A stretch of DNA of 39,464 bases from Tannerella sp. (lineage in GTDB: Bacteria; Bacteroidota; Bacteroidia; Bacteroidales; Tannerellaceae): positions 1-39,464 of the forward strand of contig JAITMT010000359.1 in the NCBI GenBank assembly GCA_031277235.1, written 5' to 3'. The notes under the pieces were generated by a model. That model saw nothing but the letters and a program-made list of their open reading frames with translations. It searched no databases and was not told the origin of the DNA. A program made the position numbers and the translations under genes. Numbering within the stretch: the first letter of the stretch is position 1; each line of letters starts with the position of its first letter. Shown in pieces: positions 8,051-27,304 of this stretch.

Positions 8051-8566
8051 TTAACCTTTAAATACTTTTTCGAGCGATATTCCCCTGTTCTGCGCCACCA
8101 TCAGCGGGCTTCTCATTTCGTTCAATGCGGCAAACGTTGCCTTCACAAGGTTGTGCGGATTGGACGAGCCTTTGGATTTGGCGAGCACGTCTTTCACGCC
8201 GACGCTTTCGAGCACGGCGCGCATGGCGCCACCGGCTTTTACGCCTGTTCCTGGCGTTGCCGGACGCAATAACACTTGTGCGCCGCCGAACTTACCGGTC
8301 TGTTCGTGGGGAATGGTACCCTTGTAAACGGGTATTTTCACCAGATTCTTTTTCGCGGATTCTACTCCCTTTTCAATGGCAGTCGTCACTTCGCCCGCTT
8401 TTCCGAGCCCCCAGCCGATGATGCCGTCTCCGTTTCCGACTACGACAATCGCGGCAAATGTGAACGTGCGTCCTCCTTTCGTCACTTTCGTAACGCGGTT
8501 GATTGCTACCAATTTATCTACTAACTCTAAATCGTTCGTTGATTTAATTCTGTTGTTTATTGCCAT
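8051..8566 (-). CDS. rpsE: 30S ribosomal protein S5
   Basis: [23 protein letters not shown]...[11 protein letters not shown]. Confidence 0.99.
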
Positions 8567-8572
8567 TGCTTT

Positions 8573-8917
8573 TTAAAATTTAAGTCCACCGTTACGTGCG
8601 GCATCTGCCAGTTCTTTAATTCTCCCGTGATAGAGGTAGCCGTTTCTGTCGAACACAACAGCCTGAATACCTGCTTCCTGTGCATTTTTTGCAATCATTT
8701 CGCCGACTTTGGCGGCAATTTCCTTTTTGGGCGCCTTGTCGGTGATCTTCAATGACGACGCCGAGGCGAGCGTTTTGCCCTGTACGTCGTTGATTACCTG
8801 TGCGTATATCTGCTTGTTGCTGCGGAACACGGTCAAACGCGGACGTTCTGCCGTTCCCGAAACGCGACCCCGAATACTTTTCTTGATCTTTAATCTTCTT
8901 GCATCTTTCTGTACCAT
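8573..8917 (-). CDS. rplR: 50S ribosomal protein L18
   Basis: [20 protein letters not shown]...[12 protein letters not shown]. Confidence 0.99.
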
Positions 8918-19703: not shown

Positions 19704-20117
19704 TTATTTCTTTTTCCCTTTCGCTGCTGCGGCTGCTGCCTGTCCCGGTTTCGGACGTTTTGCTCCATATTTTGAACGGCGCTGCGTGCGGCTTGCGACG
19801 CCTGCCGTATCTAATGTACCGCGTACAATATGATAGCGCACGCCCGGAAGGTCTTTCACGCGACCGCCGCGCACCAGTACGATTGAGTGTTCCTGCAAGT
19901 TGTGTCCTTCGCCCGGAATGTAGGAGTTCACCTCCTTGTGGTTCGTCAGACGAACGCGCGCCACCTTGCGCATCGCAGAATTGGGCTTCTTGGGCGTCGT
20001 CGTGTAAACACGTACGCATACGCCGCGTCTTTGCGGACAAGCATCCAACGCAGGAGACTTGCCTTTGACCACCAAAGTCTCTCTTCCTTTTCTTACTAAC
20101 TGTTGAATTGTAGGCAT
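19704..20117 (-). CDS. rpsL: 30S ribosomal protein S12
   Basis: [10 protein letters not shown]...PKKPNSA...[12 protein letters not shown]. Confidence 0.99.
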
Positions 20118-20377: not shown

Positions 20378-20409
20378 TTTGGCAAATTGAAAAATTGTTT
20401 TTACCTTTG
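20378..20409 (+). promoter_or_regulatory. Complete Bacteroidetes promoter for the TerB-C/ATPase/TelA operon
   Basis: TTTG (20378-20381), 20-nt spacer, TACCTTTG (20402-20409), 19 nt before ATG 20429. Confidence 0.8.
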
Positions 20410-20428
20410 GCTGAAAAATTTTCTCAAA

Positions 20429-21673
20429 ATGGGGACAACTACTTTTTTCGTCATTATTTTAGTTATTGCCTTTTTTGTTACGGGCAGATTTTTTGAAGGT
20501 TTAGAAGATTCGGGGTTCAAAAGGTTGGGAAATCAGTCTGTAAAAATTGTATCTGGAAAATTCAAACTTGAAAAGGAAGAGAGTCGGCACCTTCAAGAAT
20601 ACAACTTTGAATACCGGCAAGGCTCTTTTTGCTATAACAAAACGATTTTTGGAGAAACCGTCAGGCTATACCTCGAAATGCGCCGGGAGTTGCAGAGAGA
20701 AGACAAATATCTGAAAATTAAAGATTTTGATAGGTATTTTAAAGCCTGTGAATGGTTTGTTTTGAACCGGATGGGAATTTATAACGAAAATATTCCGAAA
20801 TCCGATGAAAACGATGATATTGTACAATTAATCAAGTATAAATCAGATAGTTATCTTGAATTTCCGGAGCATGAAAAATTACTCGTTTATTGCATGTCTC
20901 CTGTCTTTCGCAGGGCTCGATACAATTGGCTAACAATGAATTATGATTATTCAAAGCCTGAAGCGTTTTATCAAAACATCTGTATGTTAAGGGATTCCTT
21001 TCAAAAAAATAGAATTTATTTCGGGACGATAGAAAAAGTGGAAGCCGAATGCCGCAGAATTTTCTTTTCGGCGCATCAGTTTTTAGCCGACAGGGACAGG
21101 ACGTATTCGCTGTTGTCCTATCTTCAATATTTGAATGTAGAAACATCAAAATCAGAAAATTATCACCATAAAACTGTTCCTAAGGAAATTCGTCCCGTCC
21201 TGTTTGGAAACAAAAGAATGGAAGAACGTTTCGGGCTGATTTGCAACAATTTGAAACGGAATAAGGATTGGAACAAAGCCGAGGCGGATACGTTGTTGCT
21301 GCTGGGCGTCGCCAAGCGTAAAATCGAATTAAACCGTGAATCCATCGAAGAAGAAAAAGCCGAACTTTCGGAAACGGCTCAAATGCTTGAAAAATACCTG
21401 CAAGACGAAGAAACGGCGCCGGAAGAGAAAACGGTCTTTTTGCAGCCCGTAACATCGTCCGACCCCGAAAACGAACTGATTATTTTGTTTCAAAACAACG
21501 ATTTTGCGCTAAATAAAAAAGAAATTGATAAATTTGCACTGGAAAAAGGCTTATTTTCCGGCAGCATGATTCAAAAAATCAATGAAAAATACTTTGAAAA
21601 GTTGGATGACGTGCTGATTGAGGAAAGCGAAAATTCCTTTGTCCTGAATCGCGAATATTTGGAAAAATTATAA
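20429..21673 (+). CDS. N-terminally membrane-anchored TerB-C domain protein (Shango SngA-like)
   Basis: Hydrophobic FFVIILVIAFFV at the N-terminus. The C-terminus IELNRESIEE...ETAQMLEKYL...FALEKGLFSGSMIQKINEKYFEKLDDVLIE matches the TerB_C pattern. Start moved from TTG 20261 to ATG 20429 because of the promoter position. Confidence 0.78.
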   Translation: MGTTTFFVIILVIAFFVTGRFFEGLEDSGFKRLGNQSVKIVSGKFKLEKEESRHLQEYNFEYRQGSFCYNKTIFGETVRLYLEMRRELQREDKYLKIKDFDRYFKACEWFVLNRMGIYNENIPKSDENDDIVQLIKYKSDSYLEFPEHEKLLVYCMSPVFRRARYNWLTMNYDYSKPEAFYQNICMLRDSFQKNRIYFGTIEKVEAECRRIFFSAHQFLADRDRTYSLLSYLQYLNVETSKSENYHHKTVPKEIRPVLFGNKRMEERFGLICNNLKRNKDWNKAEADTLLLLGVAKRKIELNRESIEEEKAELSETAQMLEKYLQDEETAPEEKTVFLQPVTSSDPENELIILFQNNDFALNKKEIDKFALEKGLFSGSMIQKINEKYFEKLDDVLIEESENSFVLNREYLEKL

Positions 21674-21677
21674 AAAA

Positions 21678-23726
21678 ATGCTCAATATAAAACCCAAGGA
21701 GGCTACTGCCATTATCAATTCGCTGACGAGCGGCGTCGTTCCGAAAATCGGCGTACAGCACATCACGGTTGGACGTTCCAAAGAAATTGAAGCGACGCTC
21801 GCCGCACTGGAAGACGTGAAAAACGGACACAGCATGATGAAATTCTGGATTGGCGATTTCGGATCGGGCAAGTCATTCATGCTGTACCTGCTCAATACGC
21901 TGGCGATGCAGCAGAAATTTGTCGTTGCGCAAGCGGATTTTACGCCGCATATCCGCCTCTATTCCAACGACGGAAAAGGGCAAGCCCTCTACGCGGCGCT
22001 CATGAATAATCTTTCCATTCAGACCAAACCGGAGGGCGGAGCGTTGCCGGTTTTGCTCGAAAAATGGCTCGAAAGCATACTCTTTTCCGTCGCCCAACAG
22101 CATCAGATTTCCATCGCGGAAATACGTCAGGAACAATATAATACATTGATTCATAATGAAATTATGCAATCGCTGAACAAAATTTCCGATTCGGGCGCGC
22201 TGGATTTTGCTACGGTAATTATTCGGTATTACGAAGGTTTTTTGAAAAATGACGACGAATTGAAAAAAAATGCGCTGAAATGGCTCAGGGGAGAATATAC
22301 GGCCAAAATGGAAGCACGTAAGGATTTGGGAGTCAGCGATATTATCAATGACCGGAATTATTATGACATGCTGAAAAGCCTTTGCCGGCTGTTTGTAAAC
22401 ATCGGCTACAGCGGGCTGGTCATCAATCTGGACGAGGCTGTAAATCTGTATAATATCGTGAATAACGGCATGAGGCAGCGTAATTACGAAAAACTGTTGA
22501 GCATCTATAACGATTGTTATCAGGGAAAAACCGGTCATTTGTTTTTCAATATTGCCGCCACGATCGACGTTCTGGAAGATGCCGCAAAGGGTTTCTACAG
22601 TTACGAGGCGCTGAAAACACGCCTGAAAGTCAATATTTTTGAATCCGACACGCTTCGGGACTATTCTCAGCCCGTCATTCGCCTGATTCCGCTGAATCAC
22701 AGCGAAATATTTGTACTGCTTCAGAATTTGAAACAGATTTTTGATTTTAACTATCAGACGGATATTCGTTTCACAGATGCGGATATTCAGCGTTTTATGG
22801 AAGAAATTTATAACAAGCCACTTGCAGATGAGTTTCTTACACCCCGGGAAGTCATCCGTGATTTTCTCAGCATTCTGAATATTCTTCACCAGAATCCGGC
22901 GGCAAATCTACCGGATTTACTGAAAGAAATTTCGATTTCGGCGGAACGCGAGAACATATCGCCGGAAAACAGCGCGGAAAAATTACGGGAAATGAAATTG
23001 AAACAGGTGCAGAAACTTACTAAAAATCAAATATTTTCGGGTGAAATTCTGGAGGAACTGGCAGGTATACTGCTCGAAAACGAAAATGTGCATAAAATGG
23101 TTTCTTCGTCGTTCAAGAACGAGGCAGGCAATATCATTGTAACGGATAACCGATTGATTTTCATCGGAAAAAAAGGAAATATCACGTATTTTCCCTATCC
23201 TCAAATCAACGACATGACTTTTACGTCCGGAAACCGGTTCAGTACGTTAAGTATGGATTTTGACGGCGGCAAAGTTAAATTCGACTATATTCCTAAAAAT
23301 CAGACAAAACCGCTCATTAATATTCTCAATGCGCAAATCGAAATTTTTGAACGGAAAACGCTGGCTGCCGAACTGAAATATTGGGAAAAAGAAATTTCCA
23401 ACTCCGAAATGAAAGGTATGTTGAACAAAATGAGCCGCATAGCCGATATGATTCAGGAAAAAGACGAAAAAGACGGCGAACTGTTTTTCCTGCGCCATGC
23501 CGATACGTTAGCCAAACTGTTGAATCAGTATAAAACGCTGGAAATTTCAGGCATTGATTCGCCTGAAATCACCGCTTCCAAAACTCAAATACTTCATACG
23601 ATCTCGCTGACAAACAGCGCTTTCGAGCAGGAATTGAAAAATCGCCTGCAAACCGATATTTTAGATGTGGACGCCGAATCGGAAGCGTATCTTAACCGTT
23701 TGAAAATAAAAGGATTATTAAATTAA
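21678..23726 (+). CDS. DUF2791 (BrxD/SngB-like) P-loop ATPase fused to a bacterial PH-like domain and an XpaC-like C-terminal domain
   Basis: INSLTSGVVPKIG..ITVGR N-terminus, Walker A GDFGSGKS (aa 59-66), Walker B LVINLDE, LTPREVIRDF core end. Then GNIIVTDNRLIF (PH-like) and FFLRHADTLAKLLNQY...AFEQELKNRLQTDILDVDAE (XpaC-like). Confidence 0.82.
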   Translation: MLNIKPKEATAIINSLTSGVVPKIGVQHITVGRSKEIEATLAALEDVKNGHSMMKFWIGDFGSGKSFMLYLLNTLAMQQKFVVAQADFTPHIRLYSNDGKGQALYAALMNNLSIQTKPEGGALPVLLEKWLESILFSVAQQHQISIAEIRQEQYNTLIHNEIMQSLNKISDSGALDFATVIIRYYEGFLKNDDELKKNALKWLRGEYTAKMEARKDLGVSDIINDRNYYDMLKSLCRLFVNIGYSGLVINLDEAVNLYNIVNNGMRQRNYEKLLSIYNDCYQGKTGHLFFNIAATIDVLEDAAKGFYSYEALKTRLKVNIFESDTLRDYSQPVIRLIPLNHSEIFVLLQNLKQIFDFNYQTDIRFTDADIQRFMEEIYNKPLADEFLTPREVIRDFLSILNILHQNPAANLPDLLKEISISAERENISPENSAEKLREMKLKQVQKLTKNQIFSGEILEELAGILLENENVHKMVSSSFKNEAGNIIVTDNRLIFIGKKGNITYFPYPQINDMTFTSGNRFSTLSMDFDGGKVKFDYIPKNQTKPLINILNAQIEIFERKTLAAELKYWEKEISNSEMKGMLNKMSRIADMIQEKDEKDGELFFLRHADTLAKLLNQYKTLEISGIDSPEITASKTQILHTISLTNSAFEQELKNRLQTDILDVDAESEAYLNRLKIKGLLN

Positions 23727-23737
23727 AACGATAAATT

Positions 23738-24739
23738 ATGGAAAATTCAATCATTAAAATTGAAAACGGCACCCATCTTCCTGAAAATTATCCGCTTACG
23801 CCGGAAGAAAAGCAGGCAGTCGAAAATTATAAACAGAAAATAGATTTAAGCAGTCCGGGCAGTATTATTCAGTACGGCTCTGATATTCAGCAGAAAATCG
23901 TATCATTCTCCGACAGTGTGCTGAACAATCTCCGCAACAAGGATATAGGCGAAGTCGGGGATGTTTTGTCGGGACTGGTCGCCGAATTGAAAACATTCGA
24001 CAAATCATTGAATACAAATAGGTTTATAGACTATTTCCGTTCCCTGAAAAAGAAAATATTCTACATCAAATCCCAATTTTCAAAAGTGGAAAGAAACGTG
24101 GAACAGGTGGAGGTGCAAATGGAAAAACATTATCAAACGCTATCGAAAGACGTTATTCTTTTTGACAATCTGTATGCTCAAAACGAACAGTATTTCAGGG
24201 ATTTATCGCTGTATATCCGGGCAGGCGAAGAAAAACTGGCCGGGATAAAAGACGCTGTTCCGGAAGACATGGCGCACCGCTTCGACAAAAAACTGCACGA
24301 TTTGAGAATCAGCCGCATGATTTCGTTGCAATTGGCGTCTCAAATCCGTATCCTGCAAAACAACAGCGCAACGCTGATGGAACGAATCCAGTCAAGCCTT
24401 GTGAATACGTTGCCGCTGTGGAGAAATCAGATGATTCTTTCGCTCGGTCTGCTTCATTCGCAACAGGCAGCCGATGCACAACACGCTGTAAACGAGGCTA
24501 CGAACGAAATGCTACGGCGAAACAGCGAAAAACTGAAAACAACGTCGGTGAAAATCGCCAAAGAAAACGAACGCAGCGTGGTTGACCTGGAAACGCTGAA
24601 AAAAGTGAATACCGATTTGTTCGATACCATCCAAAACGTACTGTCCATCCAGCAGGAAGGTCGTCAAAAACGCCAACAGGCTGAACAGGAACTGCTTCAG
24701 ATAGAAAAGGAGATAAAAAGCAAAATGGATTTTCGCTGA
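23738..24739 (+). CDS. Toxic anion resistance protein, TelA/YaaN/KlaB family
   Basis: IIQYGSDIQQKI..FSD..L, QIRILQNN..L..RIQS...NTLPLWRNQM, TNEMLRRNSEKLK, ERSVVDLETLK, IQQEGRQKR. Confidence 0.92.
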   Translation: MENSIIKIENGTHLPENYPLTPEEKQAVENYKQKIDLSSPGSIIQYGSDIQQKIVSFSDSVLNNLRNKDIGEVGDVLSGLVAELKTFDKSLNTNRFIDYFRSLKKKIFYIKSQFSKVERNVEQVEVQMEKHYQTLSKDVILFDNLYAQNEQYFRDLSLYIRAGEEKLAGIKDAVPEDMAHRFDKKLHDLRISRMISLQLASQIRILQNNSATLMERIQSSLVNTLPLWRNQMILSLGLLHSQQAADAQHAVNEATNEMLRRNSEKLKTTSVKIAKENERSVVDLETLKKVNTDLFDTIQNVLSIQQEGRQKRQQAEQELLQIEKEIKSKMDFR

Positions 24740-24811
24740 AAAGAAATAGCCTCTTTTGGACTTGAAAAGGAATAGTACTTTACCGGTGGAGTACGCTACG
24801 CGGTGCGCATC

Positions 24812-24845
24812 AAAAAGGATAACCGTTGTCGCAACGCCTATCCTT
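24812..24845 (-). terminator. Intrinsic terminator of the putative sRNA
   Basis: AAGGATA/TATCCTT stem, inner CGTT/AACG stem, followed by a T-run on the minus strand. Confidence 0.75.
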
Positions 24846-25085: not shown

Positions 25086-26204
25086 ATGAAAAGATTTATT
25101 TTAGTCTTAAGTTTAGGGTTGATGGTTGGATTTTTCAATGTCAACAAAAGTGAAGCGCAGGTTCATATCAGTATCAATATAGATATTCAACCGGCTTGGG
25201 GTCCTTCGGGATATGATTATGCCGAATTTTACTATATTCCCGAATTGAATATATATTATGATGTTCTCAATCAGTTGTTTTACTATCTGGACGGAAGTCG
25301 CTGGATACGCACCATGTATTTGCCTGTGGCGTACAGTTACTACGATTTCTATTCATTGTATAAAGTAGTGTTAAACAACATATTAGACCCATGGAGATAC
25401 AACCGGAACCATATAGGTTTGTATCGCAGTTATTGCTACAATTACAGACAGGTTCCCATTTTCTACATGACCGACACGCGCTATTACCGTGCCCGCGAAA
25501 ACTATCGCGTTTGGGTAGAACCCCGCTACATGCCGCAAGACAACGGTCGTCCGCGGAGTCGCAATTTCTCAACGAACACGCGTAACGGTCGCATAAGCGC
25601 CGAATACCGTTCGGCAAGCGCCAATACAGCCTTGCGAAATAGCGGAAATTCAAGGAGTACTACCGTGAACAGAAGTTCCTCCAGTAGTCGTGCGGGTTCT
25701 TCAAGTTCTTCAAGCGTTGGAAGCAGCCGCAGCACGACAAACCGCAGTAGCGCAACAACAGGCGCCCGCAGTACAACAAACAGTTCGCGTGCGTCAAGAC
25801 CATCGGCGTCCGGCAGCAGTTCGCGTGAATCCTCCTCTTTTTCAGGCAATAATGACAAGGCGCGCAGTACGCCGATAACGCGCAGCAGTTCGAATAATTC
25901 AGGCGTATCGCGCAGCAGTAATGCCACTCGCAGTTCAGGTACGGGAGTCAGCAGCTCCCGTACTGCTGCTTCAAGGAGTTCATCATCAAGCGTTTCCACA
26001 CGAAGCAGAAGCAATGGTGCAGGTTCTTCCGTAAGCAGCAGCAGTTCGCGCAGTTCTACTTCAAGAGGCTCATCATCAAGTGTTTCTACACGAAGCAGAA
26101 GCAATGATGCGGGTTCTTCCGTAAAAAGCAACAGTTCGCGTAGCAGTAATGGGCGCAGTTCCACTGCTGCAAGTTCGCGAAGCAGCCGTTCAAGAGGAAG
26201 ATAA
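25086..26204 (+). CDS. Secreted hypothetical protein: Tyr-rich N-terminal domain plus ~200-aa Ser/Arg-rich disordered tail
   Basis: Signal peptide MKRFILVLSLGLMVGFFNVNKSEA|Q, then INIDIQPAWGPSGYDYAEFYYIPE. A-rich start context and downstream terminator. Confidence 0.85.
   Translation: MKRFILVLSLGLMVGFFNVNKSEAQVHISINIDIQPAWGPSGYDYAEFYYIPELNIYYDVLNQLFYYLDGSRWIRTMYLPVAYSYYDFYSLYKVVLNNILDPWRYNRNHIGLYRSYCYNYRQVPIFYMTDTRYYRARENYRVWVEPRYMPQDNGRPRSRNFSTNTRNGRISAEYRSASANTALRNSGNSRSTTVNRSSSSSRAGSSSSSSVGSSRSTTNRSSATTGARSTTNSSRASRPSASGSSSRESSSFSGNNDKARSTPITRSSSNNSGVSRSSNATRSSGTGVSSSRTAASRSSSSSVSTRSRSNGAGSSVSSSSSRSSTSRGSSSSVSTRSRSNDAGSSVKSNSSRSSNGRSSTAASSRSSRSRGR
25971..26144 (+). repeat. Two imperfect copies of a 90-bp (30-aa) unit in the Ser/Arg tail
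   Basis: tcatcatcaagYgtttcYacacgaagcagaagcaatgRtgcRggttcttccgtaa recurs at 25980 and 26070. Confidence 0.9.
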
Positions 26205-26265: not shown

Positions 26266-26305
26266 AATAAGCGTAAAGAACCGAAAACTTTATGCTTATT
26301 TTTTT
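26266..26305 (+). terminator. Intrinsic terminator after the Ser/Arg-rich gene
   Basis: AATAAGCGTAAAG / CTTTATGCTTATT stem plus T-run. Confidence 0.8.
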
Positions 26306-26334
26306 GATTAAATCAAATATATGCATTACTTTTG
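26303..26334 (+). promoter_or_regulatory. Bacteroidetes promoter for the 26369 gene
   Basis: TTTG (26303-26306), 20-nt spacer, TACTTTTG (26327-26334). Confidence 0.75.
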
Positions 26335-26368: not shown

Positions 26369-27304
26369 ATGAAGAAATTATACACTTTAGGCATCATCGC
26401 TTGTATGATGCTGTTTGCATCAAGTATTCGTGTTCAGGCACAACAAAAAATTGATACATTAAATAACACATGGTATTTGAATAAGCAAAGTGCCATTGAG
26501 GCAGCAACATCGCAGAAAAAACAGATTTTTGTCTGCTGGGGAAGGACAACTTGCTGGTACACGTCAAATGTCAGGCAATTATTAGGTACGGGCGAATTGA
26601 AACATTTGGTTGACAGCGCCTATATTTTATGGTTTGTGAATGGGGATTTGTATTCTTTATTTGGGAATGAAACAGGAGAGTATTTCCTCCCGGAATTAAG
26701 AGGTTCGTCCGGAATTATTAATTTGCCGGTACTCTGTTTGGTAAATCCAAATGATGTACATAAGTCCTATGGTTTCTCTACCGGATCAAGAAGCCAAAGT
26801 CAATTAATGGATGTGCTTGACAATGGAATTATTGTTAAAGGAAACAGCGAAGAAGGTGACGGTGGTGATGACGGTACCATTGATGATGGCAACGGAGAAG
26901 ACGGCGACGGCGGAGACGATGGCAACATTGACGAAGGTAATGACGACGGAAACGGTGGAGACGATGGAAACATTGATGAAGGTAATGACGACGGAAACGG
27001 CGGAGATGATGGCAACATTGATGAAGGTAACGACGACGGAAACGGTGGAGACGATGGCGATAAGGTTGCCAATGAAATTATCCGGGCGTCTAATGCAGAA
27101 GCGTATATATCGTTAAATAAACTTATTATAGATAATACCGCTGAAAATGAGACAGTAAGCGTTTATTCCATCACGGGTTCCCTGATTGATCGGTTCTCCA
27201 AAACGGGACAGAATGTTTCGCGGATTACCACGAATTATCCTCCCGGAATACTCATTATCTCAGGCAGTTCGGGATGGACGAAGAAAGTGATTAAGACGAA
27301 GTAA
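26369..27304 (+). CDS. Putative T9SS cargo: signal peptide, thioredoxin-like domain, Asp/Gly/Asn repeats, C-terminal sorting-type domain
   Basis: Signal ...SIRVQA|Q. W...AIEAA...KKQIFVCWGRTTCWYT and LPVLCLV are Trx-like. C-terminus VANEII...VSVYSITGSLI...PGILII...WTKKVIK is typical of T9SS CTDs. Confidence 0.7.
   Translation: MKKLYTLGIIACMMLFASSIRVQAQQKIDTLNNTWYLNKQSAIEAATSQKKQIFVCWGRTTCWYTSNVRQLLGTGELKHLVDSAYILWFVNGDLYSLFGNETGEYFLPELRGSSGIINLPVLCLVNPNDVHKSYGFSTGSRSQSQLMDVLDNGIIVKGNSEEGDGGDDGTIDDGNGEDGDGGDDGNIDEGNDDGNGGDDGNIDEGNDDGNGGDDGNIDEGNDDGNGGDDGDKVANEIIRASNAEAYISLNKLIIDNTAENETVSVYSITGSLIDRFSKTGQNVSRITTNYPPGILIISGSSGWTKKVIKTK
26861..27058 (+). repeat. 45-bp tandem repeat encoding GGDDGNIDEGNDDGN
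   Basis: Three full units at 26909, 26954 and 26999, a partial unit at 27044 and a degenerate 48-bp unit at 26861. Confidence 0.95.

Follow-up and report, generated by a model that had tools for sequence, protein, structure and literature searches.

An operon of Tannerella sp. that combines a Shango-like front end with an XpaC-TelA module: a candidate ATP-switched membrane guard

What do a Shango-type membrane protein and ATPase act on when their operon ends in telA? Shango consists of the TerB-domain protein SngA, the DUF2791 ATPase SngB and the DEAD/Lhr-like helicase SngC, and xpaC-telA (yaaN) pairs occur in B. subtilis, Listeria (lmo1966-1967) and E. faecium. Elements of both were found on the plus strand of the 39,464-nucleotide stretch of Tannerella sp. 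DNA that we analyzed (the window). Three genes are involved: an SngA-like gene (20429..21673; 414 aa from its ATG, in a frame open from 20261), a gene for an SngB-PH-XpaC fusion protein (21678..23726; 682 aa) and telA (23738..24739; 333 aa, toxic anion resistance/YaaN family). They are separated by 4 nt (sngA-like/fusion) and 11 nt (fusion/telA) and are divergent from rpsL (19704-20117, minus strand), in agreement with an earlier note that had described three intact, closely packed genes at this place. Each of the three occurs only once in the source genome.

A promoter-like motif of the Bacteroidota type (TTTG N20 TACCTTTG) lies at 20378..20409 on the plus strand, 19 nt 5′ of the first ATG, and fits the sequence TTTG-N20-TACCTTTG, which we take to be the Bacteroidota promoter consensus. 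A canonical promoter had been proposed here; the motif is indeed present, but it is not significant by itself: the window has three matches where 0.69 would be expected, and 8 of 100 shuffles reach that number. The full motif precedes sngA in just one of 12 other loci. The rpsL-adjacent position is particular to the source genome and incidental to the operon, which was found upstream of rpsL in none of the 29 other rpsL loci of the genus (four of them with less than 500 nt inspectable). The idea that the rpsL site is a defence hotspot gained no support from a comparison with the operon: the upstream genes differ across the genus and none matches it. At these 29 loci (L046-L074), the gene upstream of rpsL belongs to one family in seven cases (mutL-like by eye) and to another in four (metK-like by eye), and is different in the rest.

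The product of the first gene begins with a hydrophobic stretch (residues 4–22, KD 2.18), followed by a helical body. TerB_C matches residues 295–414 (E 3e-15) and the PADLOC SngA profile matches with E 3e-17, which bears out the proposal of a membrane-anchored TerB-C protein. Judged by eye, TerB-C might have a winged-helix fold. Residues 43–414 are homologous to the C-terminal ~430 aa of Bacteroidota SngA (365 columns, HH probability 100%). In what follows, loci with the fusion gene are called variant and those with a short ATPase followed by SngC canonical. Variant SngA has a median length of 405 aa. N-terminal of the shared region, a domain of 110–140 aa is present in 12 of 18 canonical loci versus none of 14 variant loci, according to a profile built from 8 of the 12 positive loci; in L017 it covers residues ~85–225. 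Of the six canonical loci without it, one is cut and three have a shortened sngA. Variant SngA has thus lost an N-terminal domain that canonical SngA carries, and because this domain was lost together with the helicase, we suggest that it serves the helicase arm of Shango. Its identification as TerB_N is not supported (score 14.0, reached by 4 of 20 shuffles). Pfam TerB_N is absent from 11 of 11 variant and 10 of 10 canonical Bacteroidota SngA, and Atlas feature matches of SngA residues 25–292 to TerB_N clusters (0.77) are a lead only. Median identity among variant SngA proteins is 30%, with 43% in TerB-C; since canonical SngA is about as divergent (mean column identity 32%), this divergence is not specific to the variant.

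Some sngA genes have other arrangements. Two diverged sngA-like copies precede one fusion gene at L013:2775-5939, with a small lipoprotein-like gene between them on the opposite strand. The first gene of canonical Shango at L025:4781-6004, and likewise in L027, encodes a resolvase N-terminal domain fused to TerB-C. In three further loci (L007:1158-3911, L019:406-2793 and L020:3389-5992), the N-terminal SngA domain missing in the variant is present as a tandem pair, and the sngA gene of L019 begins with a TM2 domain.

The second gene encodes an SngB/DUF2791 P-loop ATPase domain (21687..22928, plus strand) with a long C-terminal extension, as had been reported from the sequence. BrxC_BrxD (DUF2791) matches residues 4–417 (E 8e-138) and the PADLOC SngB profile matches with E 2e-156, the DUF2791/SngB matches together extending over residues ~4–437. 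Both Walker motifs are intact, as claimed before: Walker A reads GDFGSGKS (residues 59–66, lysine at 65) and Walker B LVINLDE (residues 247–253). In 33 of 33 fusion proteins G59, G64, K65, S66, D252, E253, N291, R315, R327, R390 and R394 are invariant. The ATPase region of the predicted structure is poor, with pLDDT below 50 over long stretches. The extension starts with a bacterial PH domain (bPH_3, residues 466–551, E 1e-11; 23073..23330, plus strand), whose fold was recovered in the model (Z 13.8, rmsd 2.6, 101 residues aligned to 4tyz). It is optional in the family, being missing from 24 of 68 fusion clusters, and the scatter of PH-less forms in the tree suggests repeated loss. XpaC and PH domains also pair outside the fusion: in two genomes that belong to the same genus (L043:6167-7790 and L044:5698-7304), the place of telA behind a standalone XpaC-like gene of the membrane type is taken by a bPH_3-SHOCT gene. 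We considered these bPH-SHOCT genes as the origin of the PH domain and rejected them (E 0.0024 for one of the two).

The last part of the fusion is a helical domain assigned to XpaC (Halogen_Hydrol; residues 558–682; 23349..23723, plus strand), which had been called from the sequence and which lacks the usual N-terminal membrane helices. The direct PF10112 match (residues 576–667, E 2.6e-5) scores 24.7 bits and falls below the 29.8-bit cut-off. One other fusion protein (P0038) exceeds the cut-off with 34.6 bits, and a profile of the last domain finds 827 proteins at E≤0.001. From the best 150 of these matches 51 were scanned; three were pieces of fusions, and 38 of the other 48 contain PF10112 (E≤0.001). 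The assignment rests on this profile search, because its standalone matches are mostly Halogen_Hydrol proteins. The nearest standalone relatives among the best 150 of the 827 matches are 240–280 aa long and have hydrophobic N-halves (by eye), and no hydrophobic window above KD 1.3 was found in the fusion protein. Judging from these comparisons, the XpaC domain derives from membrane-anchored XpaC proteins and has lost its own N-terminal anchor. In L042 and L089 genes for these nearest relatives lie directly 5′ of telA, and the L042 pair is 42% (XpaC) and 50% (TelA) identical to the operon. One genome contains two other standalone XpaC-like genes (L097:1117-1872 and L099:74-826), with no telA matched in the fetched stretch and, for L097, phage-like neighbors by eye.

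The third gene is telA, as proposed (PF05816, E 2e-88). The predicted structure is all-helical (pLDDT 64) and superimposes on another TelA model with TM 0.93. TelA has no strongly hydrophobic segment and contains an amphipathic basic stretch near residues 93–105; for this reason a peripheral membrane coat fits better than a self-sufficient pore. The top VIA structure match of the model was the ClyA pore protomer (6mrt; Z 12.2, rmsd 3.2, 194 residues aligned), which lies below the Z 13 caution level for helical bundles. Cry6Aa, AhlB, AhlC and PspA rank below ClyA, all within the common helical-bundle range. Foldseek gave no match for the TelA model at E≤0.001, and searches of the sequences of solved structures with TelA, SngA, fusion and XpaC profiles gave nothing significant. 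Co-folding of the XpaC domain with TelA, run without controls, scored 0.00 and carries no weight in either direction. Within the genus, TelA is restricted to 3 of 47 genomes, the same three that carry the fusion; four other members have SngB followed by a helicase-like gene (helicase by eye).

A scan of species genomes yielded 28 loci, 10 with a long and 18 with a short ATPase. The short ATPase is followed by SngC in 18 of 18 loci (E≤1e-184). For the long form, telA lies downstream in 9 of 9 complete loci, in eight directly and in L015 after one inserted gene (8092-8760; 222 aa, no Pfam match, lipoprotein-like by eye); the tenth, L008, is cut, and its XpaC-telA continuation was located on a different contig of that genome (L094). 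Overall, telA is found 3′ of the fusion in all 15 other loci with downstream sequence (L001-006, L012, L013, L015, L033-037 and L094, of which L037 and L094 show the XpaC end only; L032 duplicates L013 and was counted once). Among L033-L037, where telA follows the XpaC domain, four have a PH-less fusion and L037 is cut. In all 13 loci whose upstream sequence is available, the gene before the fusion is sngA-like. SngC was not found in the source genome, where the best match scores 59.5 bits against >600 for true SngC, nor in any of the 10 carrier genomes, which are drafts. PADLOC profiles accordingly match SngA and SngB without SngC, as the earlier note had expected, and its gene order recurs well beyond one strain, with no carrier holding sngC at the junction.

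We examined 125 protein clusters: 68, including the source protein itself, are ATPase-XpaC fusions (44 with and 24 without PH), one is cut after PH and 56 are short. Fusion carriers include named isolates (L003, L004, L005 and P0025), and all named carriers belong to Bacteroidales or Bacteroidia. Recurrence across loci and across the 68 clusters led us to reject an assembly artefact or a recent deletion chimera of a Shango locus with an xpaC-telA operon, an explanation of practically negligible probability even though the source assembly is fragmented (579 contigs, N50 11 kb). Saturated synonymous sites among fusion loci argue against it as well, as does one contig of a single run, X1, which spans the three genes and matches 20518-24841 without differences, although X1 is possibly the source data and hence not independent.

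The fusion proteins share a single origin. In a tree of the ATPase domain with 142 rows, a branch with support 100 sets the 67 fusion rows apart from all others, and in a second tree the fusions (44 of 61 rows) are likewise set apart with support 99; both are quick trees, FastTree included, and L028, with its split ATPase, was left out. With two distant SngB proteins as outgroup, the fusions nest among Bacteroidota SngB, subject to a long-branch warning on the root. The simplest history is a single event by which sngB became fused to xpaC's soluble half and telA took the position of sngC. Median identities among the fusion loci are 75% for the ATPase, 61% for PH, 62% for XpaC and 66% for TelA. 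Because synonymous sites are saturated while these identities stay at 61–75%, the fusion is old and maintained; the same saturation means that dN/dS is not well estimable. Three observations were made on individual loci: the sngA and sngB reading frames are split at L028:4434-7301, SngC has ~320 extra C-terminal residues at L018:7307-10390, and at L010:452-4469 and L018:91-4057 canonical Shango stands next to an apparent Ter-type cluster, whose genes resemble vWA, protein kinase and TerC by eye.

Set against known systems, the operon resembles Shango in the order of its first two genes, in an SngB domain ~66% identical to Bacteroidota SngB with intact motifs, and in the homologous region of SngA. 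It differs from Shango in having telA third, with no SngC beside it or found elsewhere in the 11 genomes (drafts), in the PH and XpaC domains of its SngB, and in the shortened N-terminus of its SngA. With the xpaC-telA pair, of which L042, L089 and L098 are Bacteroidota examples, it shares an XpaC domain directly 5′ of telA; unlike in that pair, XpaC lacks its hydrophobic N-half and is fused to an ATPase, and a TerB-C membrane protein comes first. BREX BrxD-BrxHI uses an ATPase of the same Pfam family (BrxC_BrxD; PADLOC BrxD E 3e-42), but the ATPase of the operon scores 143 bits against the NCBIfam BrxD cut-off of 350, with no helicase, methylase or PglZ nearby and no brx gene among 73 flanking proteins. 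Searches of full texts, 10.1101/2024.10.26.620412 among them, yielded no description of an ATPase-XpaC protein combined with telA; the supplements of the 2025 modularity preprint (>500 candidate clusters, P. aeruginosa) and Anantharaman et al. 2012 on Ter systems could bear on this point. The operon is apparently an undescribed hybrid of a Shango front end and an XpaC-TelA pair.

Our preferred reading, put forward tentatively, is that this Shango-derived operon encodes an ATP-switched membrane guard, directed most likely against phage. The shortened SngA would sit in the inner membrane via its N-terminal helix and hold the ATPase, with TerB-C, the part of SngA that is best conserved, as the probable contact; SngA and the ATPase would together stand in for the anchor by which XpaC is ordinarily attached to the membrane. 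The fused XpaC domain would dock TelA, restraining or positioning it, in keeping with the wiring through XpaC that the earlier note had proposed. This step we base on E. faecium, where drug binding and lipid domains change upon loss of xpaC provided that telA is intact (PMC6811118, a conference abstract). A membrane event such as phage DNA injection, sensed by the fast-evolving SngA body, would shift the nucleotide state of the ATPase. Freed TelA might then assemble on the inner membrane and either prevent entry or perturb the membrane so strongly that infection is aborted, with the PH domain as an optional accessory binding module.

The signalling step of this model is inferred, and the fusion has lost exactly the hydrophobic N-half of XpaC, so that an anchor is needed. 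SngA and the ATPase could merely supply that anchor while TelA does its ordinary job without ATP-dependent control. We consider such a passive tether improbable, as neither the Walker A and B residues nor five other polar positions vary in any of the 33 fusion proteins, although synonymous sites are saturated, and the ATPase is the most conserved part.

Several points speak for phage as the target of the guard. The anti-phage activity of Shango has been tested, and the system has been proposed to monitor the membrane (10.1101/2022.05.11.491447; 10.1101/2022.11.11.516204). Descent from it and the patchy spread of the fusion both count in favor: 3 of 47 genomes in the genus carry it, the families of G004 and G003 have 7 carriers among 182 and 1 among 201 genomes, and in an order sample and a phylum sample (401 genomes each) the source genome was the sole carrier. 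The fast evolution of SngA (30% median identity) and its duplication in L013 are further points. The presence of TelA in jumbo phages and Ter systems points the same way; according to PMC7824862, jumbo phages carry TelA, and the protein is proposed to build structures beneath the membrane that keep phage or xenobiotics from entering. The argument also leans on Dionysus (DinA-DinB-DinC), in which the anti-phage proteins include the TerB-like DinB and the four-TM pore protein DinC (10.1101/2025.09.30.679545). Only its logic resembles that of the operon, as a system of three anti-phage genes that couples a Ter-type protein to an effector acting on the membrane; Dionysus differs in that no ATPase, XpaC or TelA is named for it, TelA and XpaC being absent from the main text of that preprint.

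Genomic neighborhoods give no support for a defence-island setting of the variant loci. A defence gene lies within ~6 kb of 1 of 13 variant loci (L006, a type II restriction-modification fusion) versus 5 of 16 canonical Shango loci, a difference that is not significant (Fisher p 0.18); two FtsK matches near variant loci are housekeeping. Five variant loci have the same upstream DUF3857/transglutaminase gene pair, 11–37 nt away, and downstream housekeeping genes are common to two pairs of variant loci. With this shared synteny the operon looks like a settled chromosomal one; it is chromosomal in every locus seen, with mostly housekeeping neighbors. No full-length fusion was found in 72,556 plasmid records, and no relatives in viral contigs.

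These observations count against a phage purpose and fit a domesticated envelope-stress module, in which the same wiring would put XpaC-TelA under the Shango front end as a protection from antimicrobial peptides, bacteriocins or toxic anions, the phage role being gone. The published XpaC-TelA phenotypes, namely nisin, tellurite and daptomycin tolerance (PMC12791056, PMC6811118), weigh the same way, as does the loss of both the helicase and an SngA domain. We regard this as a real possibility. It sits poorly with so patchy a distribution within one genus, which is odd for a general stress function, and canonical Shango loci, too, are mostly outside defence islands (11 of 16).

Control of DNA transfer is a further candidate function: TelA might act like plasmid KlaABC (FiwB) and exclude conjugative elements by blocking DNA transfer at the membrane under ATPase control. 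We take KlaA and KlaB to be TelA-family proteins. FiwB needs KlaA, KlaB and KlaC (PMC5696584), and Ter systems serve plasmids in fertility inhibition (PMC7824862). The chromosomal location in all loci seen, the lack of full-length fusions on plasmids and the fact that no KlaC-like partner was noted make this very improbable.

In a bolder form of the phage-directed guard, the Shango/BREX-type ATPase would have ceased to serve a helicase and would use the built-in XpaC latch to arm TelA, which would remodel the membrane or act in a pore-like way as the effector of an anti-phage system so far undescribed; this is conceivable and on balance doubtful. If it were true, TelA would directly be an immune effector, and the lost SngA domain would be assigned to the Shango helicase arm. 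The module swap suggests that SngA-SngB is a detachable sensor-switch to which more than one output can be coupled, and that the helicase has an SngA domain of its own. In the literature searched no mechanism is known for Shango or for XpaC-TelA, and the swap informs both. With XpaC placed under an ATPase, mutating one Walker motif could be enough to turn TelA on or off.

Downstream of telA, the window contains two further open reading frames on the plus strand. The product of the first (25086-26204; 372 aa) has no Pfam match; its N-terminus is signal-like, and a Tyr-rich domain and an extended tail rich in Ser and Arg are present. The second (26369-27304), preceded by a promoter-like motif at 26303-26334, encodes 311 aa that match thioredoxin-like proteins weakly, contain Gly/Asp/Asn repeats and terminate in what resembles a type IX secretion signal.
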